Shown in pieces: positions 1,095 to 31,920 of a stretch of DNA of 64,000 nt (position 1 is the stretch's first letter; the number at the start of each line of letters is the position of its first letter). The DNA lies in the NCBI GenBank assembly GCA_030141605.1, contig JAQGDQ010000191.1, positions 1 to 64,000 of the forward strand, in the 5' to 3' direction. Origin of the DNA: Tubiluchus corallicola (taxonomy: Eukaryota; Animalia; Priapulida). Position numbers and translations under genes: made by a program. The notes below the pieces were generated by a model. The model did no database searches. It saw nothing but the letters and a program-made list of their open reading frames with translations, and was not told the DNA's origin.

Positions 1095-1519
1095 GCCAAG
1101 AAAATGATTTGTCACACAGGTCACATTTGTATGGTTTCATTCCAGTTTATTATGCTGTGGCACCTGTAACATGTTGACTCACATGTTGTAATGTTTATGT
1201 TGACACATTTCTCGGTTTGAGTGTTCATGTGCTTGAGAAGATTACCTCGCTGAGAAAATGATTTGTCACATTAGTCACATTTGTGAGGCTTCATTCCAGT
1301 ATGTGCGTTCATGTGACTGAGAAGATGACCTCGCTGAGAAAATGATTTGTCACAGTCACATTTGTGGGGTTTCATTCCACTATGTGTGTTCATGTGACTG
1401 AGAAGGTGACCTCGCTGAGAAAATGATTTGTCACATTAGTCACATTTGCGAGGTTTCATTCCACTATGTGTGTTCATGTGCCTGAGAAGACTACCTCGCT
1501 GAGAAAATGATTTGTCACA
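1095..1519 (-). pseudogene. Decayed continuation of the zinc-finger array beyond the stop codon
   Basis: About four further 84-bp units plus a fragment. The same TTA>TAA stop recurs near 1437 and 1272, and there is a 4-nt deletion near 1353. Confidence 0.8.
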
Positions 1520-2625
1520 TTAGTCACATTTGCGAGGTTTCATTCCACTATGTGTGTTCATGTGCCTGAGAAGACTACCTCGCTGAGAAAATGATTTGTC
1601 ACATAAGTCACATTTGTGGGGTTTCATTTCAGAGTGAGTGTTCAAGTGACTGAGAAGATTACCTTGCTGAGAAAATGATTTGTCACATAAGTCACATTTG
1701 TGAGGCTTCATTCCAATGTGTGTGTTCATGTGCCTGAGAAGACTACATCGCAGAGAAAATGATTTGTTACATAAGTCACATTTGTGGGGCTTCATTCCAG
1801 TGTGAGTGTTCATGTGCATGACAAGACTACCTCGCTGAGAAAATGATTTCTCACATAAGTCACATTTGTGGGATTTCATTCCAGTATGAGTGTTCATGTG
1901 CATGAGAAGACTACCTTGCTGAGAAAATGATTTGTCACACAAGTCACATTTGTGAGGTTTCATTCCAGTATGAATGTTCATGTGACTGAGAAGATGACCT
2001 CGCTGAAAAAATGATTTGTCACATAAGTCACATTTGTGGGGTTTCATTCCAGTATGTGCGTTCATGTGCCTGAGAAGATGACCTCGCTGAGAAAATGATT
2101 TGTCACATAAATCACATTTGTGGGGTTTCATTCCTGTGTGAGTGTTCATGTGCCTGAAAAGATTACCTCGCTCAGAAAATGATTTGTCACATAAGTCACA
2201 TTTGTGGGGTTTCATTCCAGTGTGAGTGTTCATGTGCTTGAGAAGATTACCTCGCTCAGAAAATGACCTGTCACACGAGTCACATTTGTGAGGTTTCATT
2301 CGAGTATGAATGTTCATGTGCTTCAGAAGATTACCTCGCTCAGAAAATGATTTGCCACATAAGTCACATTTGTGGGGTTTCATTCCAGTATGAGTGTTCA
2401 TGTGCGTGAGAAGATAATCACGGCGAGAAAATGATTTGCCACACAAGTCACATTTGTGAGGTTTCATTCCAGTATGAGTGTTCATGTGACTGAGAAGATT
2501 ACCTCGCCGAGAAAATGATTTGTCACATAAGTTACATTTGAGGGGTTTCATTGCAGTATGAGTGTTCATGTGACTGAGAAGATGACCTCGCACAGAAAAT
2601 GATTTGTCACATAAGGAGGAGACAC
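1520..2625 (-). CDS. Terminal exon encoding a tandem C2H2 zinc-finger array (12 complete fingers, TGMKPH linkers); upstream exons not identified
   Basis: 84-bp repeat encoding C-x2-C-x12-H-x3-H. A minus-strand acceptor (ttctttttgatacag|G) opens the exon at 2625. The track's start at 2593 is an internal GTG. The frame ends at TAA replacing a TTA Leu codon. Confidence 0.85.
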
Positions 2626-2930
2626 CTGTATCAAAAAGAAAGGAAAACTAAAATTTACAGTTAAAAATGCAATATCCTTATTGAATATCATTATTAAGAC
2701 TATGTAACAGGTTTACGATTTAAGAACACCATCTAGAAACATTAGTTTATTGACACAAAAGCAATTTGCGATTACAAATATCTACGTATAGAATCTACAA
2801 TTCTACATTTTTGAATGTTAGTAAGTAAAAACAGAGCAAATAGCTAAGAAATAATTTCATTTTCTGACCATTTTTGCTCATTTACCTTTCCTTATTTCTT
2901 CCTATTTTTGTACTGCTTGTACAAAGTCAT

Positions 2931-8740: not shown

Positions 8741-9415
8741 TTTGTGAAGTGCCTGTACTGATTTACTGTGTCTGTAAAATTGCTGTTCTAGTTCCCCCTT
8801 TTCAGAATAAAAAACAAAAATAGAAAACCCCCGATTGCCTTTTTGGGAAGGAAAGTCTTTCATCGTTAATTTTTTTATTTACCATGACCTGATAATTATT
8901 TTTCATTTTTAGGTACAAATTTCTATTACGTACATCCAGATTGAAGCGGAAAAAGCTGACAAATTTCCTTTGGTTTAAGTCACTGGAACATGTCGTACAA
9001 ACTGGGTGGTAGTCGTAAAGGTTTCCGCCACTGTTTTGGCGGTAGTTGATAAAAGTGTTTTTCGGAATATTTTATTTTATCGGATAGTGTTTAAATAAAG
9101 TTTAAAACATTACTTTAATTGTACTAGCTTTCTAGTTAATACAATAACATTATAATTACAGTGACATCCAGTGACAAAAATGGTACAGTTCAGAGTAACA
9201 TTTTTACACATACTTAGTAAAATAGACAAAGATACGACAGGACTTAAGGAAGGAATTAGAAGAGGAAAGAAAAAATGAGAAGAGCAGAAGGGAACAGAGG
9301 TGTTTTCAGTATAATTAGCCAATCTTTATAGGGGCTAACAAGTAAATATAGGGCGGAAAAATTTCCGTTACTTCATAACTGTGTTTTCTCTCCTGGTAAA
9401 CAGGTGTAGATATGA

Positions 9416-12319
9416 ATGAGCAATCAACTAAAAATGGACAGAGAGGACAGCGAAGCAGATGACAGTGACACAGAAGATGAATTCAATGAAAAGAAAGAGC
9501 AAGGATGGACTGCACTTCACGAATCTGTTTATGAGAACGACGTTAGCGCAGTGCGCCATCTACTGGCAGAAGGACATTCTGTTGGAGGACAATCTGGCAT
9601 TCTGTCAAAGCGAACACCTCTCATGATAGCATCAGCCAAGGGGTATATGAGTATAGTGCAGTTGTTATTGGAGCATGAAAATAAACTTTCAAGTTGTGAA
9701 GAGAGACAAATAAACTGCAAGGATTATGATGGACGAACACCCTTACACCATGCAGCACAGCACGACTGTGCAATTGCAGTATTTTTATTAAACCATGGAG
9801 CACCGCTAGATGTTAAAGATAATTATGGTTATTCGCCCCTTCATCTTGCGGTTGAAAGTGGACACGTCGACATTGTTCACTTGTTACTAAATCGTGGAGC
9901 TCAAGTTGACTGCGCAAACAACGAAGGCGAAACACCTCTACACACGGCTGCTGAAGAAGGGCACGTTGACGTAGTCGAGATGCTACTGAAACACGGTGCG
10001 GCAGCTGACAGACGAACAAAACGGCAAGGATTCACACCGCTTCATAAAGCAGCTGGCAAAGGATATGATAAAATAGTCGAGATACTACTGGACAGTGGAA
10101 TACAAATTGACTGTGCAGATGATGGTGGAAATACTCCTCTCCATGATGCAGCTGATTTTCAACACGCTGATATAGTCAAGATGTTACTAGATCGTGGAGC
10201 ACAAATAAATGTTAGAAATACCGGTGGAAGTACCGCGTTACACCGGGCAGCAATAATGAACAGCCGTTGCGATATTGTCAAGTTGTTATTAGACCGGAGC
10301 AGTGGAGCTTTAGTTGAATGCCGTGACGACGACGGCAACACGGCTTTGCATCGTACAGCAACTTACAGTCTTTGTCCTGACATAGCAAAGGTGCTATTAG
10401 ATTTTAAAGCAACAATTGGATGCAGAAACAAAGACGGAGAGACGCCTTTACATTTAGCGTGTGCGTACGATCGCACAGAGCTGATCAGGTTTCTTGTGGA
10501 TGCTGGAGCTGATGTAGATGCCATCAATGATAAAGGTCAAATGCCTCTTCATCTTGCAGTTAGTTATTCTCGTTCACTCGACATTATTAAACTTCTGTTG
10601 AGCAAAACGAAAACTATAAACCAGACTGATGATTGTGGTATGACACCTTTGCACTACATTTACAATCGACCTACAGTTATTTTAAACATTGATGTGGTAA
10701 GGGATTTCATTCGTCTTGGAGCCAACACAGACATAGTCAGTAATGATGGTCAGACCATTAAAGACCAGCTAGTCGAACGTGGAAATTTTGGCAAAGACAA
10801 TAACAAAGTCGTCCGGCGAGTTATAGGTCAGCTTTATCAACATCAGTATTTTAAAACCTGCAAAACATTCTCAGTAGCGTCAGCTGATCAAGATGCGTTC
10901 AAATTTGACTGCATTAATTCACTCCTCGGCGGCAGAGATAATCATATAACCAACCTGCTGCTTGTTGGTAACTTAGTAGAACCGGAAGAGTGTGATAAAA
11001 TTAAAAACTCTGTTGATTCACTGATAAGGAATGTTTGCAGTAGGATCAAAGGGTTAGAACCAGAGCTTGAAGGTGAAGCTATGTTGATTGGAAGCAGCTC
11101 ATGTGGGATAAAGTGCTGGTTACCGGACGAATTCGATTACTTCTTTGTGTTAACAACATTGAGTGAAAAAGTTACAATTGAAGCAAACAAGGACGGATAT
11201 GCGAAAGTAAGAGTGAACGATGATTTGTGCAAAAGTATGAAAAACTATGTTAGCGACGGATATCTTCAAATCCAAATAAAAGATATGTTTGCTGACGTGC
11301 TCTGCAGAGCCATGTCTGAAGCTTACCAGTCGACAATCAATCAAAGATCTCAATCTGACACATCGCTTTCAGACTTTGAACTTTTCCCAGTGCAGGATTC
11401 CATAATAGAGTGGAACAAGGTTTGCACCACATTCAACGTAATTGTTCAAGGCTCCTTCTACAAACAGCTGAAAATATCTGTCGATGTCTCGCCAGCTTTA
11501 AGGGTATCTGGTGGACCGCCAGGAGCAATATTGTCACGTCTTTCTCAAATATCGAATTTGGAATATCATGTAGTGCCAAAACCGGCGGAAGACGCTAGCA
11601 TTCAAAAACTTTCAGAGGAGTGGACGACAACTTCGACGATAAGCACCAGTTCTCCTGAAAGCAAAGTCATTCAACTGACTTCCCAGCGTAGCAAAGACGT
11701 AATGATAATACTGAAAACTTTGATGAAAGAGTACGTGTACAACGTCAAGTTGCCAAAAGCCGTTGCCAACTCGTGGATGGAAGAGCAAAAGAAGCAGCTG
11801 GAGGAGAAGAAAGATCGAGAGTCGGAATCGGGAATAGATATGCCCTATAAGTTGTTTTTAATGGCGAAACGTTACCCAGGCGATATGATAGACTCCTATA
11901 CCATAAAGACGGCATTCCTTCAAGAACTCTGGAGAAGCGGTGAGCCAAAGGACGAAGCAGAAATTGAAGAAAGAGTGCAGAGCATACTAGGGTACATCTC
12001 GTCATGCTGCAGGAATCGTTACATGCCTCATTACTTACTTAATGATTTTAACATATTAGAAAGCTTGAATGATAAATTAATCCAAAGTCAACCGCTGCCA
12101 TTCCTCATGGAAAAATGTGCGGCTGCTATTAAGCAGCATATAACCACTGATGGAGTGCCTACACACAAGTGCTTGATGAGCATAGATGCAGACGATGTGT
12201 ACGCAAACATGGAGCTAGCCCGACGCGAGCGAGACATATTTTATTGGAGTGAAACAATTGCTAACAAAAAAATATGGCAGGAGCTAGAGAAAGGTTGGCA
12301 AGAAGAGTTCAGTGAGTGA
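9416..12319 (+). CDS. Ankyrin-repeat cGAS-like receptor (ANK x~12 + Mab-21/cGAS-type nucleotidyltransferase), 967 aa in one coding exon
   Basis: About twelve G-x-T/S-P/A-L-H-type ankyrin repeats (aa ~30-445). Then LIGSSSCGIKCWLPDEFDYFFVL (GS + E-F-D), ISVDVSPAL (third Asp), SYTIKT and MPHYLLNDFNIL, which are Mab-21 family C-lobe motifs. An acceptor-like cag| at 9403 suggests an upstream exon. Confidence 0.9.
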   Translation: MSNQLKMDREDSEADDSDTEDEFNEKKEQGWTALHESVYENDVSAVRHLLAEGHSVGGQSGILSKRTPLMIASAKGYMSIVQLLLEHENKLSSCEERQINCKDYDGRTPLHHAAQHDCAIAVFLLNHGAPLDVKDNYGYSPLHLAVESGHVDIVHLLLNRGAQVDCANNEGETPLHTAAEEGHVDVVEMLLKHGAAADRRTKRQGFTPLHKAAGKGYDKIVEILLDSGIQIDCADDGGNTPLHDAADFQHADIVKMLLDRGAQINVRNTGGSTALHRAAIMNSRCDIVKLLLDRSSGALVECRDDDGNTALHRTATYSLCPDIAKVLLDFKATIGCRNKDGETPLHLACAYDRTELIRFLVDAGADVDAINDKGQMPLHLAVSYSRSLDIIKLLLSKTKTINQTDDCGMTPLHYIYNRPTVILNIDVVRDFIRLGANTDIVSNDGQTIKDQLVERGNFGKDNNKVVRRVIGQLYQHQYFKTCKTFSVASADQDAFKFDCINSLLGGRDNHITNLLLVGNLVEPEECDKIKNSVDSLIRNVCSRIKGLEPELEGEAMLIGSSSCGIKCWLPDEFDYFFVLTTLSEKVTIEANKDGYAKVRVNDDLCKSMKNYVSDGYLQIQIKDMFADVLCRAMSEAYQSTINQRSQSDTSLSDFELFPVQDSIIEWNKVCTTFNVIVQGSFYKQLKISVDVSPALRVSGGPPGAILSRLSQISNLEYHVVPKPAEDASIQKLSEEWTTTSTISTSSPESKVIQLTSQRSKDVMIILKTLMKEYVYNVKLPKAVANSWMEEQKKQLEEKKDRESESGIDMPYKLFLMAKRYPGDMIDSYTIKTAFLQELWRSGEPKDEAEIEERVQSILGYISSCCRNRYMPHYLLNDFNILESLNDKLIQSQPLPFLMEKCAAAIKQHITTDGVPTHKCLMSIDADDVYANMELARRERDIFYWSETIANKKIWQELEKGWQEEFSE

Positions 12320-12475: not shown

Positions 12476-12736
12476 AAGACACTCTATTAATGCCTCCTTG
12501 AGTCTATTGAAAACCAGAGATTTATTTTGATGAGAGGTGCTCAACAACTCTGGAGAAGTCGTGAGAGTCATAGGAGATTCATATAGAGTCATACTATGAG
12601 AGTCATGATTTTGGCATTAATAGCTGTGAAGTGGTTACAAAGAGTCAGTTGTCCCAAAACATGCATATATCAAATAAATGCAGTATGACTGAATCTTAGA
12701 AACTAAATGGCAAGAGAGTCCACAGACACTATTACA
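12476..12736 (+). repeat. ~260-bp unit, inverted at 13911-14170 and direct at ~31256-31502
   Basis: AGACACTCTAT...GAGAGGTGCTCAACAACTCT...CAAATAAATGCAGTATGA...GAGAGTCCACAGA; its reverse complement reads at 13911-14170. Confidence 0.85.
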
Positions 12737-13322
12737 GTTTTCCCTTTCAAGGAAGTAGTGTGATCAGTTGCGGCTCATAGCTAAAATTACCGAGGGTGCT
12801 GCTTCACACAGACACTATTACAGTTTTCCCTTTCAAGGAAGTAGTGTGATCAGTTGCGGCTCATAGCTGAAATTACCGAGGGTGCTGCTTCACACAGACA
12901 CTATTATAGTTCTCTCTTTCAAGGAAGTAGTGCGATCAGTTTCGGCTCATAGCTAAAATTACTGAGGGTGCTGCTTCACACAGACACTATTATAGTTCTC
13001 TCTTTCAAGGAAGTAGGGCGATCAGTGGCGCCTCATAGCTAAAATTACCGAAGGTGCTGCTTCACACAGACACTATTATAGTTCTCTCTTTCAAGGAAGT
13101 AGTGCGATCAGTTTCGGCTCATAGCTAAAATTACTGAGGGTGCTGCTTCACACAGACACTATTATAGTTCTCTCTTTCAAGGAAGTAGTGCGATCAGTTT
13201 CGGCTCATAGCTAAAATTACTGAGGGTGCTGCTTCACACAGACACTATTATAGTTTTCTCTTTCAAGGAAGTAGTGTGATCAGTGGCGCCTCGTAGCTAA
13301 AATTACCGGGGGTGCTGCTTCA
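12721..13322. repeat. 86-bp minisatellite, 7 copies
   Basis: CACAGACACTATTA...GGTGCTGCTTCA at 12721, 12807, 12893 etc.; ~1.3 inverted copies at 32374-32488. Confidence 0.95.
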
Positions 13323-14304
13323 GAAATTTTTTAGCCAAAGTTGTTTAATACTGTGTAAAACGAAACAAACATATCAAATTTTAATGTTGCAATTGTAATT
13401 TTAAACAAACCAATATGTGAAAGTATATACGTAAACTTGATAAAATCCTAATCACAAAAAAGTATTTTTTCCACACTAATAGCCTAAATTGTTGCAGTTC
13501 AATCTTGATCCATTCACAGTAAGCACGTGACAACTGACAACAAACTGTGTGAGCGAGAGTACTTTTTCTACCTGGGATCAGACATGTGCGCATGACCGCA
13601 AACGCACAACTGTTACAGCCAAACACCTCGTTGCTGGAGCGCAATGTGCTGAGCTATGAAGCAAACACCACTGCCCTCACATGCTCTGGTTTTGTACAGG
13701 TATAAGGAAAGAACTAAAGAAAAGACTCGTTATAGTTGTGAATATTATCAATAATACTGAGTGAAAATATGCAAAGACACTGGTAAAGACATTGATCACA
13801 CTTGTTGCTTTAGAATAAGTTGCAGTGTAACATAAAACTTTGTTACGTCAATACAAATAATAATTCCTCTCTATAAACACATACGTTTATAAGTGCAAAT
13901 GCACTGCAAATGTAATATTCTCTGTGGACTCTCTTACCATTTAGTATCTAAGATTCATTCATACTGCATTTATTTGATGTATAGATTTTTTGGGACAACT
14001 GACTCTTTGTAACCACTTCAGCTATTAATGCCAAAATCATGACTCTCATAGTACGACTCTATATGAGTCTCATATGACTTTCATGACTTCTCTAGAGTTG
14101 TTGAGCACCTCTCAGCAAAATAAATCTCTGCTTTTCGATAGACTCAAGGAGGCAGTGATAGAGTGTCTTATAGACAGGTTTGTTGAAACTTAGTAGTCAT
14201 TCAACTAGTGCAATATCATTGGATCGCTGTTCTATAAGCTTTCGAACTATTTGTTTGGCACTATGATGATACAGCTTGCTCTGTATTGCTCTAAAATTAA
14301 GTTT

Positions 14305-14580
14305 GACCAGACGGTTTAGTCTAGTGGTAACGCGTCCACTTTCCGTCTGGGAGGTTGTGAGTTTGAACCAGCGGCCGGGTCATACCAAAGACTTTAAAAA
14401 TGGTACCCGCTGTTGCCCTGCCCGACGCGTAGTATTTAGGGTAAAAGTGGGGTAATAATAGTCTCTGTTGTGTAGTTGTAGGTTGTTATTTACAGTCGGC
14501 GATAATAGCTCTTTGAGCTAATGTTAATTGTTGACCCAAAAGCCGACTTTAAATAAAGATTATCATTATTATTATTAATA
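14305..14580 (+). mobile_element. tRNA-derived SINE with Meta-domain-like core; mirror copy at ~30845-31123 (-)
   Basis: A box TAGTCTAGTGG and B-box-like GAGTTTGAACC. Core GGTCATACCAAAGACTTTAAAAATGGTAC resembles the MetaSINE domain as I recall it. AATAAA and a (TTA)n tail follow. Confidence 0.7.
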
Positions 14581-15010
14581 AGTTATATTTATTAATTACG
14601 TTGTTAAGATGAATACTCGGTAACTCATAGCTGTACGTTGTAATCATAGCACTTTTGAGAATTAATAAGTTATTTTTATTAATTATGTTGTTAAGATGAA
14701 TACTCGGTAACTCATGGCTGTATGTTGTAATCATAGCACTTTTGAGAATTAATAAGTTATTTTTATTAATTATGTTGTTAAGATGAATACTCGGTAACTC
14801 ATGGCTGTACGTTGTAATCATAGCACTTTTGAGAATTAATAAGTTATTTTTATTAATTATGTTGTTAAGATGAATACTCGGTAACTCATGGCTGTATGTT
14901 GTAATCATAGCACTTTTGAGAATTAATAAGTTATTTTTATTAATTATGTTGTTAAGATGAATACTCGGTAACTCATGGCTGTATGTTGTAATCATAGCAC
15001 TTTTGAGAAT
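14575..15010. repeat. 87-bp minisatellite, ~5 copies (left arm)
   Basis: Unit containing GATGAATACTCGGTAACTCATGGCTGTA; the same family has ~14 copies in the right arm. Confidence 0.95.
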
Positions 15011-15761
15011 TTAAATTATTTACATAATAAGAAACTTGTGTTAAATGATTTTATTGAAATGTGACATTGAGTGAAGCCTTGTAACAGTAAAGAAACTTCA
15101 CAGTTTCACAAATGTTTTAGATGTCGCTATCAGGGGCATATTAACTAATAGACTAACTAGAGTCTAGACTATAGCCTAGGCCCCCAAAGTTTGAGAATTA
15201 GAAATTTTTTTATTCTGCTCGGAAAATGTGTATACTTTCATTTTCATATTCATGTGAAGGGTGCATTTTATAACACACCATAGGCAGTTACTGAGGCCTG
15301 CTCCTATATAAGTGCCACATAACGAACAGGTGCAAGGCATTATACGACTAGCATGCACTATGCAAATACATGTAATTGATAATGACCAGGTTAATAGTGT
15401 TTCTAATACACCACAAGTAATTATTTAATGCACTCATTACATAAATAACACAATAGAGATATGCGGGACAGAACTATTGACCAAAGGCATTATAAAGTCT
15501 TGATATGTCCCTGGTCACAGAATTGCAAATGTTGTTCTCTTCTCTACATGGGATGTTGTTACATTTGAAATGAAATTTGATAACAGATCATAAATTCATA
15601 ATAGCAACATAATGTGGCCATTTAAAAACATAGCCGAGAGGATTGTGCTACTCTCAAATACTGCGCTACAGAGCACATCAATATTTCTGATCAACAAACC
15701 AATTACAATGTCCAAACCATCTGATCCTCCAATGACCATTCGCCTTACACAGCAACATTGG

Positions 15762-15876
15762 AGTAATCATTATTTCTATGTAGTAATCATTATTTCTATG
15801 GAGTAATCATTATTTCTATGTAGTAATCATTATTTCTATGGAGTAATCATTATTTCTATGTAGTAGTCATTATTTC
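15762..15876. repeat. 20-bp tandem repeat, 5-6 copies
   Basis: AGTAATCATTATTTCTATG(T/G); only ~2 copies at the mirrored site 28855-28895. Confidence 0.9.
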
Positions 15877-15898
15877 ATTGTTGCTACTCATTGGCTAT

Positions 15899-16514
15899 AT
15901 GTGTGCTTGACAAACCAAAACTGTCCATAAGTGGGCATAGTTAAAACAATGTTATGATGTTTCAAAGTACAATGCACCAAAAAGTTGGTCAAATGTCACC
16001 TTTTTCTCTTTTATAAAAACAAATGCTAAATATATTGGACTTTTACAATCTAGCATGAAATTATCAAGAAAATGTTCAAAAAACACTAAAAATCCAATTT
16101 TATAACTCCTTACTCAGTTTTCTGGCTAGAAACTAGTGCTGCAATTGTAAAAAACTTGTTTTTTTAAACTCCGCTAGAAGCTCATGGAAGCAGTCATTTT
16201 ATTTCGGGTTTTTAGTGTTGACAAACCCAGATCTTTGCCAGGAACAGCCATCTACTGGATATAACATTATTTAAATGTGTTCTTGCAAAGTCCGTAACAA
16301 CCAACATTCGTGCGGTTGCTAACTGTTTTATAGAAACACGACAAAAAACAATGGCTGACTTTAACAGCGATTTTCTCAAGATTATGTTTTTCTGTGCGCA
16401 GCCTGCACCTCAACTTCAATGTGGATTACCTCAGCTTAGAAATAAAATACGGCGATGACTTTGGTATCAAAATGATTGCCGACTTATGGACAATTTTGCT
16501 ATGAAGCACACATT
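15899..16514 (+). mobile_element. TIR-bounded MITE, family B (mirror copy ~28222-28838)
   Basis: Imperfect ~38-bp TIRs: ATGTGTGCTT...CAAAACTGTCCATAAGTGGGCA / TGCCGACTTATGGACAATTTTG...AAGCACACAT. Confidence 0.7.
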
Positions 16515-17034
16515 TAGGGATGAGAATGACAAACTGCAAGAAACTCTGAAACAGGCCGGGGTTTTTGGGGCCACCTAGGCCCCATTGGGGTTGAGGGGCA
16601 AAGTCCCCTTGGAGCCAGCAACAAATTGCAATTTTGTGACCATAGAGAGCCTGTAAGTGGACTTAAAATATCAATTACCTTGTTTCATGCATAATATAAA
16701 ATACCCAACTATCAAGGATACGTGATACCTAATTGTCTCAAAAACGCCTAAGTACTGGCCGCTCCTATGCAAAAGTTTATAAAAACTGTCTGCAATTGAC
16801 TCAAATAACTCCACACAATTGATTCTATATTTTTATACATAGAGATCTACACGTGGTTACACTGATGTACATGATGTAAACAAAATGAAGGCCTGCCATC
16901 TAGCGGTCAGCTTGTGAAATAATGTACTGGGTCCGTAAAAATTTTCTCAACGAATTTACGCGATTTACAAAAATGGCACTACTGGTCTTCCAAAAACTCG
17001 GAACTCCGCGTATCCGCGGAAAACTCTCATCCCT
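16515..17034 (+). mobile_element. hAT-like MITE, family A (mirror copy 27703-28221)
   Basis: Ends TAGGGATGAGAAT ... ACTCTCATCCCT; the mirror copy has a perfect 12-bp TIR AGGGATGAGAAT. Confidence 0.7.
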
Positions 17035-17244
17035 TTGTAAACAACAAAACAAATTACAATGTCAAAAACATCTGATCCATTCATCTTACTAAGCAACAAT
17101 GGAGTAGTCATTATTTCTATGTTACTACTCAATGGCTAGATGCTAATACTATGAAATAATAATAACCAGTGCTCCAAAAAAGCACCTGTTAAATGTGCTT
17201 GATAAAATCTCATCTTGAATCACTAGGCTGTGAATTTATACTTG

Positions 17245-19035
17245 TTAAGTATTTCTTGAGTGTTTTAACCTATGTTTCCTTAGGTAGCTTTGCCTAGCGA
17301 AATTAGCTCCACATAGACTGCATAAGTATGGCTTGATTCCAGTGTGAACCGTGATGTGTTCCTTTAAGTACCGTAGCTCGCTGAAGGCAACACCGCAATG
17401 CTGACACGAATGAGGTCGAGGCTGCCCCGTATGTTTCAATCTATGGCTCTTCAACGATGAAAGATTAGAGAACGAAGCTTCACACTGCGAACAAGAATAA
17501 GGTTTTTCTCCTGTGTGAGTCATTAAATGCCTTTTCAGTAGGTACGATCGAGTAAAACTTGCCCCGCACCACGCACACGTGTGCGGTCTCTCCCCGGTAT
17601 GACCCCTCAGATGTTGTTTTAAGCTACCGGGTTCGGTAAACGAAGCGTCGCACAGGTGACAGCCGTGCGGTCTTCCACCTTGGTGCCTCTTCAAGTGCCG
17701 CTGTAGTGTTCCTGACTGGGAAAAAGCTTTGCCACATAGCTCACATTTGTAAGGTTTTTCACCGCTGTGAGTCAACAGATGGCGCGTCAGCAAGCACTGC
17801 TGTCCAAAAGCCGCTCCGCAAAAATTGCAAAGATGAGGTTTGTCGCCCGAATGCGACAGCTGGTGTCGATTTAAGTTACCCGCACAGCTAAAAGTTGCAG
17901 CGCAGTGGGTGCAGATGTAAGGCTTCTGTTTTGAATGCGTTTCTATGTGCATTTTCAAGCTGCTCATATAATAACATGCATAGCCACACTGATCGCACTT
18001 GTAAAGCTTTTCAGTCTTGTGATTCATCAAATGTCTGCTTAAATTTCTGGAATTTTTGAAAGCGAGTTTGCAGTAGTCACACTTAAATGGCAGTGGTGCA
18101 GGGTGGACATTAGGTTTGGCACCATTTTTGTCCAGTGAAGACTCGCATTGACCACTGGCTTGACAGTTTTTGATTTTGCTAACATGAGAAGTAAGATGTT
18201 TGTTGTAATGACCCAACCTGGCAAACGAGGCAGTACACTGTGAACACTGAAAAGGTTTTTCATTCGAATGTTTAAGCAAATGCTGCTTCAAATGACTTGG
18301 CCATACGAATGCGGCGTCGCACTGAGTACATTTGTGAGGCTTTGTTCCAGAGTGTTCCATCAAATGCTTCTTCAAATAACTGCTGCTGGAAAAAGTGCCG
18401 CCGCACTTAACGCACGTGAATGGTTTCACGCCGGTATGTGTGAACAGATGGCGTTTCAAGTGACTCGGACTAGTAAAGGCACCTTCACAATGCTGACATT
18501 TATATGGCCGTCCCTGACTCGCAGATTTGATTAATGGCGTATCTCCTGCAGAGCTCAGAGATGCTTCACTTACTACAATGTGCTCTGAAGAATCGCGGCT
18601 GTTGTCACATTGTTCAACAGTGTCATTGTTTTTCACACATTGTTTAACAGTGTCATTGTTTTCCACAGAATAACAACCTACATTTGATTGGGAGTTAGTA
18701 ACATTTAAATCAAGCCTAGCACTTGCACTATTGGCAGCATCAGCAACTGTCGATTTTCTATTAATAAAGTTACCAAAACAAGACCCGTTTTTGGAATTGC
18801 CGTTTGCATCAGCACCATCTTTCGCTTCTGATTCAACTTTTACGACAACTGCATCTACATCAGTCTGAGCGACAATTTCGCTGGATGAACGAGGAAGTCT
18901 TTGTAGACCTTGTTCTTCTGACGTATCTGCTGGTTTCAGTATTTTAATGTCGTACATTTCGCTCCCGTGATGGGATGCTTCAACCGGCAAAGAAGGCGGC
19001 TCTGATTTTACTAATGGACTCTCATCTTCATCCAT
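17245..19035 (-). CDS. C2H2 zinc-finger protein, 14 fingers (4+10), copy 1
   Basis: 596-aa ORF with a low-complexity N-terminus (VKSE, VKVE SUMO-type motifs) and TGEKP-type linkers. Acceptor ttcttgctttgcag| opens the exon at 19055. Confidence 0.92.
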   Translation of the reverse strand: MDEDESPLVKSEPPSLPVEASHHGSEMYDIKILKPADTSEEQGLQRLPRSSSEIVAQTDVDAVVVKVESEAKDGADANGNSKNGSCFGNFINRKSTVADAANSASARLDLNVTNSQSNVGCYSVENNDTVKQCVKNNDTVEQCDNSRDSSEHIVVSEASLSSAGDTPLIKSASQGRPYKCQHCEGAFTSPSHLKRHLFTHTGVKPFTCVKCGGTFSSSSYLKKHLMEHSGTKPHKCTQCDAAFVWPSHLKQHLLKHSNEKPFQCSQCTASFARLGHYNKHLTSHVSKIKNCQASGQCESSLDKNGAKPNVHPAPLPFKCDYCKLAFKNSRNLSRHLMNHKTEKLYKCDQCGYACYYMSSLKMHIETHSKQKPYICTHCAATFSCAGNLNRHQLSHSGDKPHLCNFCGAAFGQQCLLTRHLLTHSGEKPYKCELCGKAFSQSGTLQRHLKRHQGGRPHGCHLCDASFTEPGSLKQHLRGHTGERPHTCAWCGASFTRSYLLKRHLMTHTGEKPYSCSQCEASFSNLSSLKSHRLKHTGQPRPHSCQHCGVAFSELRYLKEHITVHTGIKPYLCSLCGANFARQSYLRKHRLKHSRNT

Positions 19036-19189
19036 CCTAGAATGTATTGAAAACTCTGCAAAGCAAGAAATGTAGTTAACTACTTTAATTTAACTGGATG
19101 TCAGACACTGTAATTACCTGTTGCATTAAATTGTCAAAACAATTTAAAACAATGTTCACACTGGTGTCATTTGCTGATAATTAAATGTC

Positions 19190-19868
19190 AAATTAAAACA
19201 GCAAAATCGTCCATAAGTAGGCAGTTAAGCTTTTTATTATTCAAATATCCCGAATTTCCATTTCCTGGGGATCATTTTAATACCAAGCTCATTACTCTAT
19301 GTTATTTCTAAGCTGAGATAATCTACGTTGAAATTAAGGTGCAGGCTGTGCAGTGAAAAACTTAATGTTTAGAAAATTACCTTTATAGTTAGCCATTGTT
19401 TTCTGTCGCGTTTCTACAAAAACTTAGCAACCGTACAACTGTTGGTTGCCAAGGACTTTGAAAGAACGCGTTGAAGTCTGTTTAAATCCAGCAGATGGCT
19501 CTTCCAGACAAAGATCTGGGCTTGGCACCAGAAAAAACCCAAAGCAAAACGAACTACAAAAGCAAAATGACTGCTTCCAGGAGCTATTATCGGAGTGTGA
19601 ATATACAATTTTTCACAATTGCAGCACTAGTTTCTAGCCAGAAAAGTGGGTAGGGGGTTAAAAAATTAGATTTCTAGTATTTTTTAAACATTTTTTTTTG
19701 ATAATTTCATGCTAGAATATAAAAGCCCAATATATTTAGCATTTGGTTTTATAAAAAACAAAAAATTAACATTTGACCAAATTCTTTGTGCATTCTAGTT
19801 TGAAGCATCATAACATAGTTTTAACTATGCCGACTTATGGACGGTTTTGGTTTGCAAGCAACACAAAT
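19190..19868 (-). mobile_element. MITE family B, second copy, inverted relative to 15899-16514 (mirror copy ~24265-24940)
   Basis: GCAAAATCGTCCATAAGTAGGCA at 19201 and TGCCGACTTATGGACGGTTTTGG ending 19850; internal similarity to the first copy. A fragment also lies at ~23200-23285. Confidence 0.7.
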
Positions 19869-22815: not shown

Positions 22816-25095
22816 CAGTTCCTTATTTCTGTAGAGACAAACAGCTGTCAAAATTCGAGATGCAAAATCTTTCACAAGGTTTGCTTGCAGTTACTGTTGG
22901 TTAATACTCAGCAGTTTTTCGGCAAGAAAACTCTAGTCAGAATACGCCATAAACTTTTTCTTGTCCAGGCCAACAATAAAAATACCTTTTCTGTTTTTCT
23001 ATTTTTTATCGCACACCCAGCTGGGAATTTTATAAGTTCGTATAAGTGATTCATATATGACTTATTTGACACTGTCATATAAAAGCATATTTATTTCTTT
23101 AATTACAATGTAAAACCCAATAATTATTATAACATGGTTCTTTAGGGGATGCAAGACTCGGCCATGTTTTACCATGGCTAACTTTCGGCTGGGGTTGCCA
23201 TCCGTAAGTTGGCAATTAAGCATTTCTAGTTATTCACATATCCCGAATCTTCATTTCATGAGGATCATTTTGATACCAAACTCATTGGCTTTTAACACAT
23301 TTGTGTGATTACACAAAGAATTCACAATTATTATTAAACAAAACAAACTTGTGAATTAAATAATTTTCTGGCGAATTTCGAATGTGTGCATTGCTGTAAA
23401 CATCGCCATGTTTCGCATCTTTGGCACGAATGAGCAAGAACTGCGTATGAGATACTAAAAGCGTTTTTGGCTACTAATGTTTGTTTAGCAATCTCTAATG
23501 ACCTCTTGACTGTACTCGTAACATCATTCGTCTTGTTCAACAAAAAAATGGCAGTTCTTCAAACTTAATATCTCTAATAATAATATAATTTCCACAAATA
23601 TAATTTACTTGTCTGTTAGTTAAAACTCTTAAAGTGAAAGAAATATATGACATGTATTGTCTTCATTTCATGTATCAGTATCATAATTGACTACTTCCAC
23701 CAGCTTTTCAGTCATACTTTAGTCCAGTTTCAAATCAACATGATCATTACACAAGATATTCAGTCGAAAGCTATGTACTCCCTCTTCCAAAAACAAATAT
23801 AACGAAACAGTCATCAAAATACAATGCTATTAAAATATGGTCATCAATTCCGCGTTAAATGAAAACTCTTAATCTTTATCAATTTAAAAAAGCATCAAAG
23901 AATTACCTACTGCAATGGTATAATTAACTCACAATTTTACTCATCCTGATCTTAAGTTACTAACAAAACTTATTTTGTTCTAATGTACGTTATAACTGAT
24001 GAAAATGTAATGTTAATTGTCAATTGTTTCACTTATCTGGAAGAGGACTCGAAATCTCAAGGCTCCTTCCTCCTCCTCACAGTAACTCGCATAGTTTATT
24101 TACGTTTTTTTCAATGTAATATCAACTTGTATGTATGTTTGAGTTGCTGTGGAATAAATTCATAATTCAAAAATAATTCAATAATCAAGTGATACAAAAT
24201 CAAAGGAAACAAGTTTTAGAGTAAGTTTATAATAAAATAAAATGATTTTAAGTTGTAGAAGCTTATATGTGTGCTTGCAAACCAAAACCGTCCATAAGTC
24301 GGCATAGTTAAAACTATGTTATGATGCTTCAAACTAGAATGCACAAAGAATTTGGTCAAATGTTAATTTTTTGTTTTTTATAAAACCAAATGCTAAATAT
24401 ATTGGGCTTTTATATTCTAGCATGAAATTATCAAAAAAAATGTTTAAAAAATACTAGAAATCTAATTTTTTAACCCCCTACCCACTTTTCTGGCTAGAAA
24501 CTAGTGCTGCAATTGTGAAAAATTGTATATTCACACTCCGATAATAGCTCCTGGAAGCAGTCATTTTGCTTTTGTAGTTCGTTTTGCTTTGGGTTTTTTC
24601 TGGTGCCAAGCCCAGATCTTTGTCTGGAAGAGCCATCTGCTGGATTTAAACAGACTTCAACGCGTTCTTTCAAAGTCCTTGGCAACCAACATTTGTACGG
24701 TTGCTAAGTTTTTGTAGAAACGCGACAGAAAACAATGGCTAACTATAACAGCGATTTTCTAAACATTAAGTTTTTCACTGCACAGCCTGCACCTTAATTT
24801 CAACGTAGATTATCTCAGCTTAGAAATAACATAGAGTAATGAGCTTGGTATTAAAATGATCCCCAGGAAATGGAAATTCGGGATATTTGAATAATAAAAA
24901 GCTTAACTGCCTACTTATGGACGATTTTGCTGTTTTAATTTGACATTTAATTATCAGCAAATGACACCAGTGTGAACATTGTTTTAAATTGTTTTGACAA
25001 TTTAATGCAACAGGTAATTACAGTGTCTGACATCCAGTTAAATTAAAGTAGTTAACTACATTTCTTGCTTTGCAGAGTTTTCAATACATTCTAGG

Positions 25096-26925
25096 ATGGA
25101 TGAAGATGAGAGTCCATTAGTAAAATCAGAGCCGCCTTCTTTGCCGGTTGAAGCATCCCATCACGGGAGCGAAACGTACGACATTAAAATACTGAAACCA
25201 GCAGATTCGTCAGAAGAACAAGGTCTACAAAGACTTCCTCGTTCATCCAGTGAAATTGTCTCTCAGACTGATGTAGATGCAGTTGTCGTAAAAGTTGAAT
25301 CAGAAGCGAAAGATGGTGCTGATGCAAACGGCAATTCCAAAAACGGGTCTTGTTTTGGTAACTTTATTAATAGAAAATCGACAGTTGCTGATGCTGCCAA
25401 TAGTGCAAGTTCTAGGCTTGATTTAAATGTTACTAACTCCCAATCAAATGTAGGTTGTTATTCTGTGGAAAACAATGACACTGTTAAACAATGTGTGAAA
25501 AACAATGACACTGTTAAACAATGTGTGAAAAACAATGACACTGTTGAACAATGTGACAACAGCCGCGATTCTTCAGACCATGTTGTAGTAAGTGAAGCAT
25601 CTCTGAGCTCTGCAGGAGATACGCCATTAATCAAATCTGCGAGTCAGGGACGGCCATATAAATGTCAGCATTGTGAAGGTGCCTTTACTAGTCCGAGTCA
25701 CTTGAAACGCCATCTGTTCACACATACCGGCGTGAAACCATTCACGTGCGTTAAGTGCGGCGGCACTTTTTCCAGCAGCAGTTATTTGAAGAAGCATTTG
25801 ATGGAACACTCTGGAACAAAGCCTCACAAATGTACTCAGTGCGACGCCGCATTCGTATGGCCAAGTCATTTGAAGCAGCATTTGCTTAAACATTCGAATG
25901 AAAAACCTTTTCAGTGTTCACAGTGTACGGCCTCTTTTGCCAGGTTGGGTCATTACAACAAACATCTTACCTCTCATGTTAGCAAAATCAAAAACTGTCA
26001 AGCCAGTGGTCAATGCGAGTCTACACTGGACAAAAATGGTGCCGAACCTAATGTCCACCCTGCACCACTGCCATTTAAGTGTGACTACTGCAAACTCGCT
26101 TTCAAAAATTCCAGAAATTTAAGCAGACATTTGATGAATCATAAGACTGAAAAGCTTTACAAGTGTGATCAGTGTGGCTATGCATGCTATTATATGAGCA
26201 GCTTGAAAATGCACATAGAAACGCATTCAAAACAGAAGCCTTACATCTGCACCCACTGCGCTGCAACTTTTAGCTGTGCGGGTAACTTAAATCGACACCA
26301 GTTGTCGCATTCGGGCGACAAACCTCATCTTTGCAATTTTTGCGGAGCGGCTTTTGGACAGCAGTGCTTGCTGACGCGCCATCTGTTGACTCACAGCGGT
26401 GAAAAACCTTACAAATGTGAGCTATGTGGCAAAGCTTTTTCCCAGTCAGGAACACTACAGCGGCACTTGAAGAGGCACCAAGGTGGAAGACCGCACGGCT
26501 GTCACCTGTGCGACGCTTCGTTTACGGAACCCGGTAGCTTAAAACAACATCTGAGGGGTCACACCGGGGAGAGACCGCACACGTGTGCATGGTGCGGGGC
26601 AAGTTTTACTCGATCGTACCTACTGAAAAGGCATTTAATGACTCACACGGGAGAAAAACCTTATTCTTGTTCGCAGTGTGAAGCTTCGTTCTCTAATCTT
26701 TCATCGTTGAAGAGCCATAGATTGAAACATACGGGGCACCCTCGGCCTCATTCGTGTCAACATTGCGGTGCTGCCTTCAGCGAGCTACGATACTTAAAGG
26801 AACACATCACGGTTCACACTGGAATCAAGCCATACTTATGCAGTCTATGTGGAGCTAATTTTGCTAGGCAAAGCTACTTAAGGAAACATAGGTTAAAACA
26901 CTCAAGAAATACTTTACAAGTATAA
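25096..26925 (+). CDS. C2H2 zinc-finger protein, 14 fingers, copy 2
   Basis: 609 aa. Differs from copy 1 by ~10 substitutions, one extra 10-aa repeat (NNDTVKQCVK) and a 3-aa longer C-terminus. Confidence 0.92.
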   Translation: MDEDESPLVKSEPPSLPVEASHHGSETYDIKILKPADSSEEQGLQRLPRSSSEIVSQTDVDAVVVKVESEAKDGADANGNSKNGSCFGNFINRKSTVADAANSASSRLDLNVTNSQSNVGCYSVENNDTVKQCVKNNDTVKQCVKNNDTVEQCDNSRDSSDHVVVSEASLSSAGDTPLIKSASQGRPYKCQHCEGAFTSPSHLKRHLFTHTGVKPFTCVKCGGTFSSSSYLKKHLMEHSGTKPHKCTQCDAAFVWPSHLKQHLLKHSNEKPFQCSQCTASFARLGHYNKHLTSHVSKIKNCQASGQCESTLDKNGAEPNVHPAPLPFKCDYCKLAFKNSRNLSRHLMNHKTEKLYKCDQCGYACYYMSSLKMHIETHSKQKPYICTHCAATFSCAGNLNRHQLSHSGDKPHLCNFCGAAFGQQCLLTRHLLTHSGEKPYKCELCGKAFSQSGTLQRHLKRHQGGRPHGCHLCDASFTEPGSLKQHLRGHTGERPHTCAWCGASFTRSYLLKRHLMTHTGEKPYSCSQCEASFSNLSSLKSHRLKHTGHPRPHSCQHCGAAFSELRYLKEHITVHTGIKPYLCSLCGANFARQSYLRKHRLKHSRNTLQV

Positions 26926-26993
26926 ATTCACAGCCTAGTGATTCAAAATGAGATTTTATCAAGCACATTTAACAGGTGCTTTCTTGGAGTACT

Positions 26994-27560
26994 AAGATAA
27001 GATAAGATAAGATAAGATAATATTTATTTTCATCGGTATGATATAAAACAGTACATATTTGTAAAACATGAGCTTAAAGCTCGTAAACCGATATCAAACA
27101 TAATGTATATGAGCGATAACATACATGGTAATAATATGTACTTCTTAAAATCTTTTGGATGTCACCAGAGGTATTGGTGCTAGAAAAATTTATAACTACA
27201 TGAAGACAGTAAAAATTTTAGGCAGTAACATTTTCAGAAATTTACACAAAAAGCTATGTAGGTCAATAAAAAATTTTCCAGCCAACATATTCAGCATTTA
27301 ATTACGACTTGACAAAATTGGGAAGTTCGCTGAATTTACAAATGGCACATTTACATGATACACCAGTCCATGAGTTAATTAGACGTTTAAATTCCCCAAG
27401 ATTTTCAGCCATTCGGAGACAGTTTGGTAATTCATTCCACAATGTGGCTCCATAATAGGAGAAACTTTTCTTGTCATTGTAACACCATCATATGTAGGGT
27501 GTTCTGCAATGTTCATTTTTCTGAGGAAGTAGCAAGAAACAAGTTTATTAAAAATAAAAA
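26994..27560 (-). mobile_element. 5'-truncated LINE (CR1/L2-group-like) 3' fragment, right arm only
   Basis: (TTATC)n tail at 26994-27020. Minus-strand KSFSYYGATLWNELP resembles the C-terminal motif of CR1/L2-group ORF2. Absent at the mirrored site ~17168. Confidence 0.7.
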
Positions 27561-29647
27561 CTGGTTCTTATTTGACAGTATTAGCATCTAGCCAATGAGT
27601 AGTAACATAGAAATAATGATTACTCCATTGTTGCTTAGTAAGATGAATGCTCATTGGTGGATCAGATGTTTTTGACATCGTAATTTGTTTTGTTGTTTAC
27701 AAAGGGATGAGAATTTTTCGCGGATACGTGGAATTCCGAGTTTTTGGAAGACCAGTAGTGCCATTTTTGTAAATCGCGTAAATTCATTGAGAAAATTTTT
27801 ACGGACCCAGTACATTATTTCACTAGCTGACCGCTAGATGGCAGGCCGTCACTTTGTTTACATCACGTACATCGGTGTAGCCAAGTGTATATCTCTATGA
27901 ATAAAAATATAGAATCAATTGTGCAGAGTTATTTGAGTCAATTGCAGACAGTTTTTATATACTTTTGCATATGAGCGGCCAGTACTTAGGTGTTTTTGAA
28001 ACAATTAGGTATCATATATCCTTGATAGTTGGGTATTTTAAATTTTGCATGAAACAAGGTAATTGATATTTTAAGTCCACTTAGAGGTTCTCTATGGTAA
28101 CAAAATTGCAAGTTGTTGCTGGCTCCAAGGGGGATTTGCCCCTCAACCCCAATGGGGGCCTAGGTGGCCCAAAATCCCCGGCCTGTTTCAGAGTTTCTTG
28201 CAGTTTGTCATTCTCATCCCTAAATGTGTGCTTCATAGCAAAATTGTCCATAAGTCGGCAATCCTTTTTATACCAAAGTCATCGCCGTATTTTATTGCTA
28301 AGCTGAGATAATCCACATTGAAGTTGAGGTGCAGGTTGCACACAGAAAAACATAATCTTGAGAAAATCACTGTTAAAGTCAGCCACTGTTTTTGTCGTGT
28401 TTCTACAAAACACTTAACAACCGCACAAATGTTGGTTGCTATGGACTTTGCAAGAACACATTGGTGTTATGTTTAAATCCAGTAGATGGCTGTTCCTGGC
28501 AAAGATCTGGGTTTGTCAACACTAAAAACCCGAAATAAAATGACTGCTTCCATGAGCTTCTAGCGGAGTTGAAAAATTAAGTTTTTTACAATTGCAGCAC
28601 TAGTTTCTAACCAGAAAAATGGATACTCAGTTATAAAATTTGATTTCCCTATTTGTTGGACATTTTCTTGATAATTTGATGCTAGAATGTAAAAGTTCAA
28701 TATATTTAGCATTTGTTTTTATAAAAGACAAAAAGGTGACATTTGACCAACTTTTTGGTGCTTTCTACTTTGAAACATCATAACATTGTTTTAACTATGC
28801 CCACTTATGGACGGTTTTGGTTTTTCAAGCACACATATGTGCCAATGAGTAGCAACATAGAAATAATGATTACTACATAGAAATAATGACTACTCCAATG
28901 CTGCTGTGTAAGGTGAATGGTCATTGGTGGATCAGATGTTTTTGACATCATAATTTGTTTGCTGTTTAGAAATATTGATGTGCTCTGTAGTGCACTATTT
29001 GAGAGTAGCAACATCCTCTCAGCTATGTTTTTAAATGGCCACATTATGTTGCTATTATGAATTTATGATCTGTTATCAAATTTCATTTCAAATGTAACAA
29101 CATCCCATGTAGAGAAGAGAACGACATTTGCAATTCTTTGACCAGTGGCCAGGGTCATATCAAGACTTTACAATGCCTTTGGTTGATAGTTCTGTCGCAC
29201 CAATCTCTACTGTGTTATTTATGTATGTGCATTAAATAATTACTTGTGGTGTATTAGAAACACTATTAACCTGGTCATTATTAATTACATGTATTTGCAT
29301 AGTGCTTGCTAATTGTATAATACCTTGCACCTGTTCGTTATGTGGCACTTATATAGGAGCAGGCCTCAGTAACTGCCTATGGTGTGTTATAAAATGCATC
29401 CTTCACGTGAATATGAAAATGAAAGTATACACATTTTCCGAGCAGAATAAATTTTTTTTCTAAAATGTGACATTCTCAAACTTTGGGGGCCTAGGCTATA
29501 GTCTAGACTCTAGTTAGTCCATTAGTTAATATGCCCCTGGTAGCGACATCTAAAGAAAATTGTGAAGTTTCTTTACTGTTACAAGGCTTCACTCAATGTC
29601 ACATTTTAATAAAATCATTTAATACAAGTTTCTTATGTAAATAATTT

Positions 29648-30850
29648 TAATTCTCAAAACTGCTATGATTACAACGTACAGCCATGAGTTACCGAGTATT
29701 CATCTTAACAACATAATTAATAAACATAACTTATTAATTCTCAAAAGTGCTATGATTACAACATACAGCCATGAGTTACCGAGTATTCATCTTAACATAA
29801 TTAATAAAAACAACTTATTAGTTCTCAAAAGTGGTATGATTACAACGTACAGCCATGAGTTACCGAGTATTCATCTTAACATAATTAATAAATATAACTT
29901 ATTAATTCTCAAAAGTGTTATGATTACAACGTACAGCCATGAGTTACCGAGTATTCATCTTAACAACATAATTAATAAACATAACTTATTAATTCTCAAA
30001 AGTGCCATGATTACAACGTACAGGCATGAGTTACCGAGTATTCATCTTAACAACATAATTAATAAACATAACTTATTAATTCTCAAAAGTGCTATGATTA
30101 CAACGTACAGCCATGAGTGACCGAGTATTCACCTTAACAACATAATTAATAAACATAACTTATTAATTCTCAAAAGTGCTATGATTACAACGTACAGCCA
30201 TGAGTTACCGAGTATTCACCTTAACAACATAATTAATAAACATAACTTATTAATTCTCAAAAGTGCTATGATTACAACGTACAGCCATGAGTTACCGAGT
30301 ATTCATCTTAACAACATAATTAACAAACATAACTTATTAATTCTCAAAAGTGCTATGATTACAACGTACAGCCATGAGTTACCGAGTATTCACCTTAACA
30401 ACATAATTAATAAACATAACTTATTAATTCTCAAAAGTGCTATGATTACAACGTACAGCCATGAGTTACCGAGTATTCACCTTAACAACATAATTAATAA
30501 ACATAACTTATTAATTCTCAAAAGTGCTATGATTACAATGTACAGCCATGAGTTACCGAGCATTCATCTTAACAACATGATAAAAACAACTTATTAGTTC
30601 TCAAAAGTGGTATGATTACAACGTACAGCCATGAGTTACCGAGTATTCATCTTAACATAATTAATAAATGTAACTTATTAATTCTCAAAAGTGTTATGAT
30701 TACAACGTACAGTCATACCGAGTATACATCTTAACAACATAATTAATAAACATAACTTATTAATTCTCGAAAGTGCTATGACTACAACGTACAGCCATGA
30801 GTTACCGAGTATTCATCTTAACAACACAATTAATAAACATAACTTAATAA
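29648..30850. repeat. 87-bp minisatellite, ~14 copies (right arm)
   Basis: ATGATTACAACGTACAGCCATGAGTTACCGAGTATTCATCTTAACAAC... with some 84-bp variants. Confidence 0.95.
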
Positions 30851-31500
30851 TAATAATAATGATAATAATCTTTATTTAAAGTCGGCTTTTGGGTCAACAA
30901 TTAACATTAGCTCAAAGAGCTATTATCGCCGACTGTAAATAACAACCTACAACTACATAACAGAGACTATTATTACCCCACTTTTACCCTAAATACCACG
31001 CGTCAGGCAGGGCAACAGCAGGTACCATTTTTAAAGTCTTCGGTATGACCCGACCGCTGGTTCAAACTCACGACCTCCCAGACCGAAAGCAGACGCATTA
31101 CCACTAGACTAAACCGTCTGGTCAAACTTAATTTTAGAGCAATACAGAGCAAGCTGTATCATCATAGTGCCAAACAAATAGTTCGAAAGCTTATAGAACA
31201 GCGATCCAATGATATTGCACTAGCTGAATGCTACTAAGTTTCAACAAACCTGTCTATAAGACACTCTATCAATGCCTCCTTGAGTCTATTGAAATGCTGA
31301 GAGGTGCTCAACAACTCTAGAGAAGTCATGAGAGTCATATGAGACTCATATAGAGTCATACTATGAGAGTCATGATTTTGGCATTAATAGCTGTGAAGTG
31401 GTTACAAAGAGTCAGTTGTCCCAAAAATGCACATATCAAATAAATGCAGTATGACTGAATCTTAGATACTAGATGGTAAGAGAGTCCACAGACACTATTA

Positions 31501-31920
31501 CATTTGCAGTGCATTTGTACTTATAAACATATGTGTGTATAGAGAGGAATTATTATTTGTATTGACGTAACAAAGTTTTATGTTACACTGCAACTTATAA
31601 GCAGTAACACATTTGCAGTGCATTTGTACTTATAAACATATGTGTGTATAGAGAGGAATTATTATTTGTATTGACGTAACAAAGTTTTATGTTACACTGC
31701 AACTTATAAGCAGTAACACATTTGCAGTGCATTTGCACTTATAAACGTATGTGTGTTTAGGGAGGAATTATTATTTGTATTGACGTAACAAAGTTTTATG
31801 TTACACTGCAACTTATAAGCAGTAACACATTTGCAGTGCATTTGCACTTATAAACGTATGTGTGTTTAGGGAGGAATTATTATTTGTATTGACGTAACAA
31901 AGTTTTATGTTACACTGCAA
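31501..31920. repeat. 109-bp tandem repeat, ~4 copies (single copy in left arm at ~13820-13912)
   Basis: CATTTGCAGTGCATTTG at 31501, 31610, 31719 and 31828. Confidence 0.93.

Follow-up and report, generated by a model that had tools for sequence, protein, structure and literature searches.

An ankyrin-repeat cGAS-like receptor with an intact catalytic triad in the priapulid Tubiluchus corallicola: a candidate for control by protein binding

Introduction

The cGAS-like receptors (cGLRs) of animals were catalogued by Li et al. (2023; PMC9980059), who listed 3,020 proteins, 87% of them without extra domains, and named ankyrin fusions. The portions of that article and of its supplements available here include at least dozens of ankyrin-bearing accessions in Table S2 and report that 15 of the 140 cGLRs screened went forward as active. 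Nine of these 15 answer to dsDNA or dsRNA, and no other activator of animal cGLRs is defined there. In its section 6, the cGLRs that sense DNA or RNA are described as having a pI above 8.5, and non-nucleic-acid ligands are proposed for acidic cGLRs. Ankyrin-fused cGLRs are an obvious test case for the idea that acidic cGLRs answer to other ligands.

Two ankyrin-bearing proteins of Priapulus caudatus are of particular relevance. XP_014668761.1 (LOC106810026) appears in Table S1 and, with an Ank_2 annotation, in Table S2 of the catalogue, which also contains XP_014666123.1, a second Priapulus protein with the motif WNKVC. In the supplements at hand neither accession occurs in the activity screen, none of six ankyrin motif strings lies within the opening 400 letters of the screened constructs, and none of the 15 active enzymes was seen among the Table S2 ankyrin rows examined (PMC9980059). 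A literature search that covered few subscription journals found no ankyrin-bearing cGLR that had been assayed biochemically, and a term search of the available text of 10.1101/2025.09.04.674280 returned no mention of ankyrin.

This article describes a protein of the same kind, the ankyrin-cGLR, encoded in a stretch of 64,000 nucleotides (the window) of Tubiluchus corallicola contig JAQGDQ010000191.1. Since such fusions, one of them from the same clade, were already catalogued in 2023, it is a further member of a known but uncharacterised subtype; a first-pass annotation remarked that such fusions had been noted in invertebrate surveys, and the novelty which it implied was too high (PMC9980059, as far as available). 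The present analysis delineates a subclade marked by active-site changes of its own and by a connector helix. Among the dozens of fusions already listed, the ankyrin-cGLR is a clean candidate, being encoded by what is likely one exon, intact, strongly acidic and confidently modeled; it sharpens the question of the trigger rather than settling it.

Comparison with described systems

XP_014668761.1, the closest named relative (31% identical over the domain), and XP_014666123.1 resemble the ankyrin-cGLR in their N-terminal ankyrins, cGLR domain, triad, WNKVC motif and helical insertion. The ankyrin-cGLR has twelve repeats and a domain pI of 5.1, whereas the two catalogued Priapulus proteins have about six repeats and values of 8.2-8.3. 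The protein itself is not in the databases searched, where the best match is 48% identical.

The ankyrin-cGLR shares its catalytic motif and predicted fold with Cv-cGLR1 and Sp-cGLR1, at only 18-20% identity. These two enzymes, whose structures are solved, make 2'3'-cUA and 3'3'-cUA in response to dsDNA and dsRNA, differ in how they retain the Arg or an equivalent strand motif, and were screened as constructs without ankyrins. Pd-cGLR of Pocillopora damicornis (XP_027049992.1), described in the available parts of its source as auto-active and producing 2'3'-cGAMP, is acidic (pI 5.0) like the ankyrin-cGLR and, by eye, similar to it in the long spacing before the third Asp and in a G-x-x-Y-x-x-L-x-I-S-V-D strand; unlike it, Pd-cGLR has 432 aa and no ankyrins. 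Vertebrate cGAS shares the G-S-x11-E-F-D spacing, the third Asp, S-Y-x-x-K and the helical lobe, whereas the ankyrin-cGLR has no zinc thumb, is acidic instead of basic, has lost the strand Arg and carries an ankyrin N-terminus.

The ankyrin-cGLR gene

The protein is encoded by a single unbroken stop-to-stop frame of 967 codons (967 aa) at 9416-12319 on the forward strand; an in-frame TGA at 9413-9415 marks its upstream limit. Across 30 shuffles of the window the longest stop-free frame had 170 codons, and a chance origin of the frame was rejected. It is likely one coding exon. Given an out-of-frame ATG at 9412, M7 (context AAAATGG) is the candidate start and may be the real one. A pyrimidine tract directly upstream (Table 1) is a possible splice acceptor of a non-coding first exon, as read from the sequence.

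Contigs of sequencing run X1 that span 9160-10161 and 11692-12180 are free of gaps against the frame; the run reads as DNA-like because upstream sequence and high-copy repeats are also covered. Run X2 contains a 164-nt contig about 89% identical to 10963-11124, at the start of the catalytic domain, with five of the 11 listed differences silent; by its sequence this contig likely represents a paralog or ortholog. A tblastn search of the window with the ankyrin-cGLR and seven relatives found no second copy. Carriage by a transposon was rejected, no transposase or terminal repeats being seen to frame the gene within the window. Just downstream, at 12721-13913, a minisatellite of 86 nt (seven copies) merges into a high-copy interspersed repeat, with an inverted second copy at 31827-32489.

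Table 1. Features of the ankyrin-cGLR gene and protein, in window coordinates.
Feature	Position	Strand	Basis
Pyrimidine tract holding AG dinucleotides (9402-9403, 9408-9409); putative splice acceptor	9380..9409	+	read from sequence
N-terminal tail, aa 1-28; acidic (12 D/E), low model confidence	9416..9499	+	
Twelve ankyrin repeats, aa 29-445	9500..10750	+	Pfam, sequence, model
Connector helix between ankyrin cap and enzyme, aa 464-478	10805..10849	+	model and alignment
cGLR catalytic domain (Mab-21 and Mab-21_C), aa 506-918; pI ~5.1	10931..12169	+	
Nucleotidyltransferase motif G559-S560-x11-E572-F-D574	11090..11137	+	sequence
WNKVC motif, aa 666-670	11411..11425	+	alignment (11/11 clade rows)
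Third catalytic Asp, D690 (SVDVSPA)	11483..11485	+	sequence; D in 62/63 aligned rows
T741, at the Arg place of the cGAS W-R-L-S-F-S strand	11636..11638	+	alignment
Helical insertion of the C-terminal lobe, aa 770-826	11723..11893	+	model and alignment
S-Y-x-x-K motif, aa 827-831, at the place of SYHVK in cGAS	11894..11908	+	

The catalytic domain

The G-S-x11-E-F-D motif and the third Asp lie exactly where the first-pass annotation had placed them (Table 1), and the spacing that it gave for human cGAS is confirmed by the human and mouse sequences in the available part of Table S3 of PMC9980059, which have 11 residues. All three catalytic acids are present, unlike in Mab21L/MiD49-type proteins with an incomplete active site. 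The residues by which cGLRs were defined in print, G-S and [DE]h[DE]h with h[DE]h farther along, correspond to G559-S560, E572-F-D574-Y and V-D690-V. The literal pattern in the accessible text of the catalogue, h[QT]GS with the third Asp 50-90 residues on, is not matched, Ile standing at [QT] and the interval being 113 residues. It is not the working criterion, because the catalogued XP_014668761.1 (Val, 97 residues) and the active Pd-cGLR (Cys, about 129 residues by hand count) depart from it as well.

Homology extends over the nucleotidyltransferase core and the C-terminal helical bundle. Pfam reports Mab-21 at aa 565-735 (25.7 bits) and Mab-21_C at aa 824-889 (32.3 bits), both above the cut-off of 24.1, and the isolated domain matches cGAS in two stretches at E 2e-4. 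Since Pfam flags Mab-21, a domain scan would not call the protein ankyrin-only, contrary to the expectation that automated annotation would label it just an ankyrin repeat protein. A profile built from four relatives reached cGAS at E 3e-12, Mab21L1 at 1e-10 and Sp-cGLR1 at 7e-10, and in the ESM Atlas Mab-21 clusters were found at 0.95-0.96, with neighbors that include Mab21-like 2 and TMEM102 clusters.

Folding of the catalytic domain from its single sequence gave a pLDDT of only 34. The full-length AlphaFold2 model, made from 61 aligned sequences (60 of the 69 relatives), has a pLDDT of 85.6 and a pTM of 0.82. It places E572-D574 on a strand at 572-578 and D690 on a strand at 685-698, so that the three acids would cluster in the predicted fold. 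Active cGLRs are the best fold matches of the modeled domain (aa 506-918): oyster Cv-cGLR1 (8gjw) with Z 26.1, rmsd 2.9 and 324 residues aligned, and Sp-cGLR1 (8gjy) with Z 22.7, rmsd 3.6 and 312 residues. A fold match is not proof of function, because the pseudo-enzyme MiD49 scores nearly as high as Sp-cGLR1 (Z 21.9, rmsd 3.1, 308 residues). With the full model Foldseek listed ankyrin proteins only, and it was a broader structure search that recovered the cGLR match. The three traits by which cGLRs were recognised in print, namely the active-site residues, homology over both lobes and a predicted structural likeness to known cGLRs, are all present. The reading of the locus as an ankyrin-fused cGLR with an intact triad, made before any such comparison, thus finds support in the sequence, the profile search and the modeled fold.

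The catalytic domain has a pI of 5.09 and a net charge of -13, and its spine region has five K/R against nine D/E; the cuts used for pI (18 residues wide) are fixed windows around a motif, which makes the values approximate, and pI is itself no more than a rough proxy for mapped surface charge. The zinc thumb of cGAS has a role in DNA binding, and by eye against cGAS sequences its H...CC...C insertion is absent between E748 and K767. The Arg of the W-R-L-S-F-S strand, which contacts guanine in cGAS, is replaced by T741. K767, S827-Y828 and K831 are conserved in most of the 63 aligned rows.

Ankyrin repeats and connector helix

The fusion of about twelve repeats to a cGLR-like domain, as proposed from the letters alone, was found in one predicted polypeptide, and the order of the two domains is the same in relatives. 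The twelve repeats, with a [TSM][PA]L[HM] core, begin at aa 32-410 and are followed by a capping helix pair; Pfam Ank marks ten separate stretches. Repeats 3 and 8 (aa 95-127 and 284-316) are modeled with low confidence. Pairwise identity between repeats is at most 52%, and a recent internal duplication was rejected.

The connector helix carries an N-x-x-[YLVFQ]-[RK]-x-x-x-G-like pattern in ten of the 11 clade members, aligned by eye, and the linker around it (aa 451-505) is basic (pI 9.1). A whole-chain pTM of 0.82 together with the conserved helix suggests that the two domains are not loosely hung; a fixed arrangement is predicted by the model, in which the ankyrins would pack on one face of the enzyme. 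The concave-face positions are acidic, with 16 D/E and 8 K/R among 60.

A 1,002-nt piece of run X1 differs from the window at six places, three of them upstream of the frame and one not listed. Both listed differences in the ankyrin part alter amino acids (aa 139 and 237), and both fall on variable concave-face positions of the pattern used for designed ankyrins (PMC10484509, available part). This is a weak hint of a protein ligand, noticed post hoc and at concave positions, which are the most tolerant of change anyway.

Relatives and the WNKVC clade

Searching with the catalytic domain alone yielded 66 representatives at E values up to 0.001, 53 of which have an ankyrin Pfam match (52 above the curated cut-off); the 13 others comprise an unrelated carbohydrate-binding protein, ten proteins of 146-479 aa and two long ones. 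The tree was built from 63 domain rows of 60 proteins, including an accidental duplicate row (P0017_1). Five proteins were omitted (two fragments, one false match, one weak two-domain match and one near-duplicate), as were six off the motif pattern, one of them with G-G for G-S. Row selection makes E572 and D574 invariant by construction; D690 played no part in it. The presence of ankyrins changes nine times on the tree, close to the mean of 9.5 after shuffling; most of the rows that lack ankyrins are short, and they stand beside ankyrin-bearing ones. P0015 (Ruditapes philippinarum) and P0018, each about 2,250 aa long, combine two cGLR domains with blocks of ankyrins.

The ankyrin-cGLR falls with XP_014668761.1 in a clade of 11 rows (support 100/99), all of which have ankyrins and WNKVC. 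The strand Arg is missing in ten of them and retained in 43 of the 52 other rows, and the stretch from K767 to S827 measures 44-60 aa throughout the clade. The number of ankyrin HMM matches varies from 3 to 16 per member. Domain pI ranges from 5.1 to 8.3 (median 7.3), with none of the 11 above 8.5 and with P0003 (XP_014668761.1; 8.3) and P0013 (8.2) among the highest, so acidity is not a rule of the clade; the argument from pI is good for the ankyrin-cGLR itself and weaker for its clade.

Four of the 11 rows are paralogs of P. caudatus, which has at least five genes of this clade and five STING genes. Such a pattern is typical of immune genes. XP_014670921.1, XP_014675828.1 and XP_014661479.1 (P0008, P0010 and P0011) are further P. 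caudatus ankyrin-cGLRs of the clade, absent from the six supplements of Li et al. (2023; PMC9980059) that were searched.

Proposed function and alternative explanations

The ankyrin-cGLR almost certainly belongs to the cGLR family and, judging from its motifs, is probably catalytically active, with the reservation that an intact triad is no guarantee, because only 15 of 140 screened cGLRs went forward as active. To control of the enzyme by protein through the ankyrins, and equally to the full mechanism that follows, we give a probability of about 0.45. The proximal repeats and the connector helix would brace the enzyme, and a protein bound to the concave side of the ankyrins would bring it into its active state; the two-metal site of E572, D574 and D690 would cyclise two NTPs, and a predicted cyclic dinucleotide would likely be made for STING. 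The switch would be this bound protein rather than dsDNA or dsRNA. The loss of Arg from the W-R-L-S strand suggests an altered product or base choice, and the product may be other than canonical 2'3'-cGAMP or less guanine-selective.

That the fusion is stable, the connector conserved, the whole-chain pTM high and the count of distal repeats variable fits a model of repeats that bind protein and control the enzyme; the connector helix, the pTM and the variable repeat number point indirectly to the ankyrins as a putative sensor or autoinhibitory module. A non-nucleic-acid trigger is plausible and is the favored prediction because the domain is acidic (pI 5.09), against values above 8.5 in nucleic-acid sensors (PMC9980059, section 6 as available). 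More tentatively, and with the odds against it, the whole WNKVC clade may consist of single-chain, protein-triggered synthases in which a variable ankyrin solenoid, held on the enzyme by the conserved connector helix, senses pathogen or damage proteins and a non-canonical cyclic dinucleotide results. Such enzymes would be animal cGLRs akin to an NLR sensor wired directly to a cyclase, in which gain or loss of repeats would alter specificity.

The ankyrin-cGLR could instead be an ordinary nucleic-acid sensor whose ankyrins merely localise it or recruit downstream partners. The response of nine of the 15 active cGLRs to dsDNA or dsRNA (PMC9980059, parts available), the clade domains near pI 8 and the basic linker speak for this; the acidic domain, the lack of any clade domain above pI 8.5 and the zinc-thumb insertion not being seen at the cGAS place speak against it and leave it improbable. 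Equally improbable is a Mab-21-fold nucleotidyltransferase of other chemistry or non-immune role, whose ankyrins bring in a substrate or partner protein and whose product is no STING ligand. WNKVC in place of the usual strand entry, the Arg lost in ten of 11 clade rows, a match of Mab21L1 to the profile as good as that of cGAS and the Atlas neighbors Mab21-like 2 and TMEM102 are compatible with it, yet the triad and the phosphate-contact motifs are all retained, the best fold matches are active cGLRs, and the clade expansion and STING genes of Priapulus form an immune-like pattern.

A silent or decaying copy, which a single coding exon amid high-copy repeats might suggest, is most unlikely, given 967 unbroken codons, gap-free X1 contigs and key residues retained though the nearest relative is only 48% identical. 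The ankyrin domain of RNase L binds 2-5A, as is known partly from the titles of structure entries. That the ankyrins here would likewise bind a nucleotide signal, in a relay or a feedback-controlled enzyme, is slightly less likely still: the fold matches of the ankyrin part do include RNase L sensor domains (Z 28.3 and 27.4), yet many unrelated ankyrin proteins score equal or higher, repeat number is not conserved, and the acidic concave face makes a phosphate-rich ligand a poor fit.

Other features of the window

With a GC content of about 37%, the window is animal DNA that contains C2H2 zinc-finger genes, numerous repeats and a LINE element. A large, recent inverted duplication (13815-19860 and 24272-31598, arms 93-99% alike) holds near-identical C2H2 zinc-finger frames that point apart, at 17245-19089 (-) and 25042-26925 (+). 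Tandem repeats of 87 nt at 14574-15011 and 29647-30851 yield spurious repetitive frames. A C2H2 zinc-finger tandem array with a period of 84 nt and about 17 copies, partly open, lies at 1218-2647 (-), and a LINE-type retrotransposon frame with endonuclease and reverse transcriptase runs unbroken for 1,059 codons at 32606-35785 (-). An exon of a two-pore potassium channel at 49384-49878 (+) has only two matches, 48-52% identical, one of them from a millipede.
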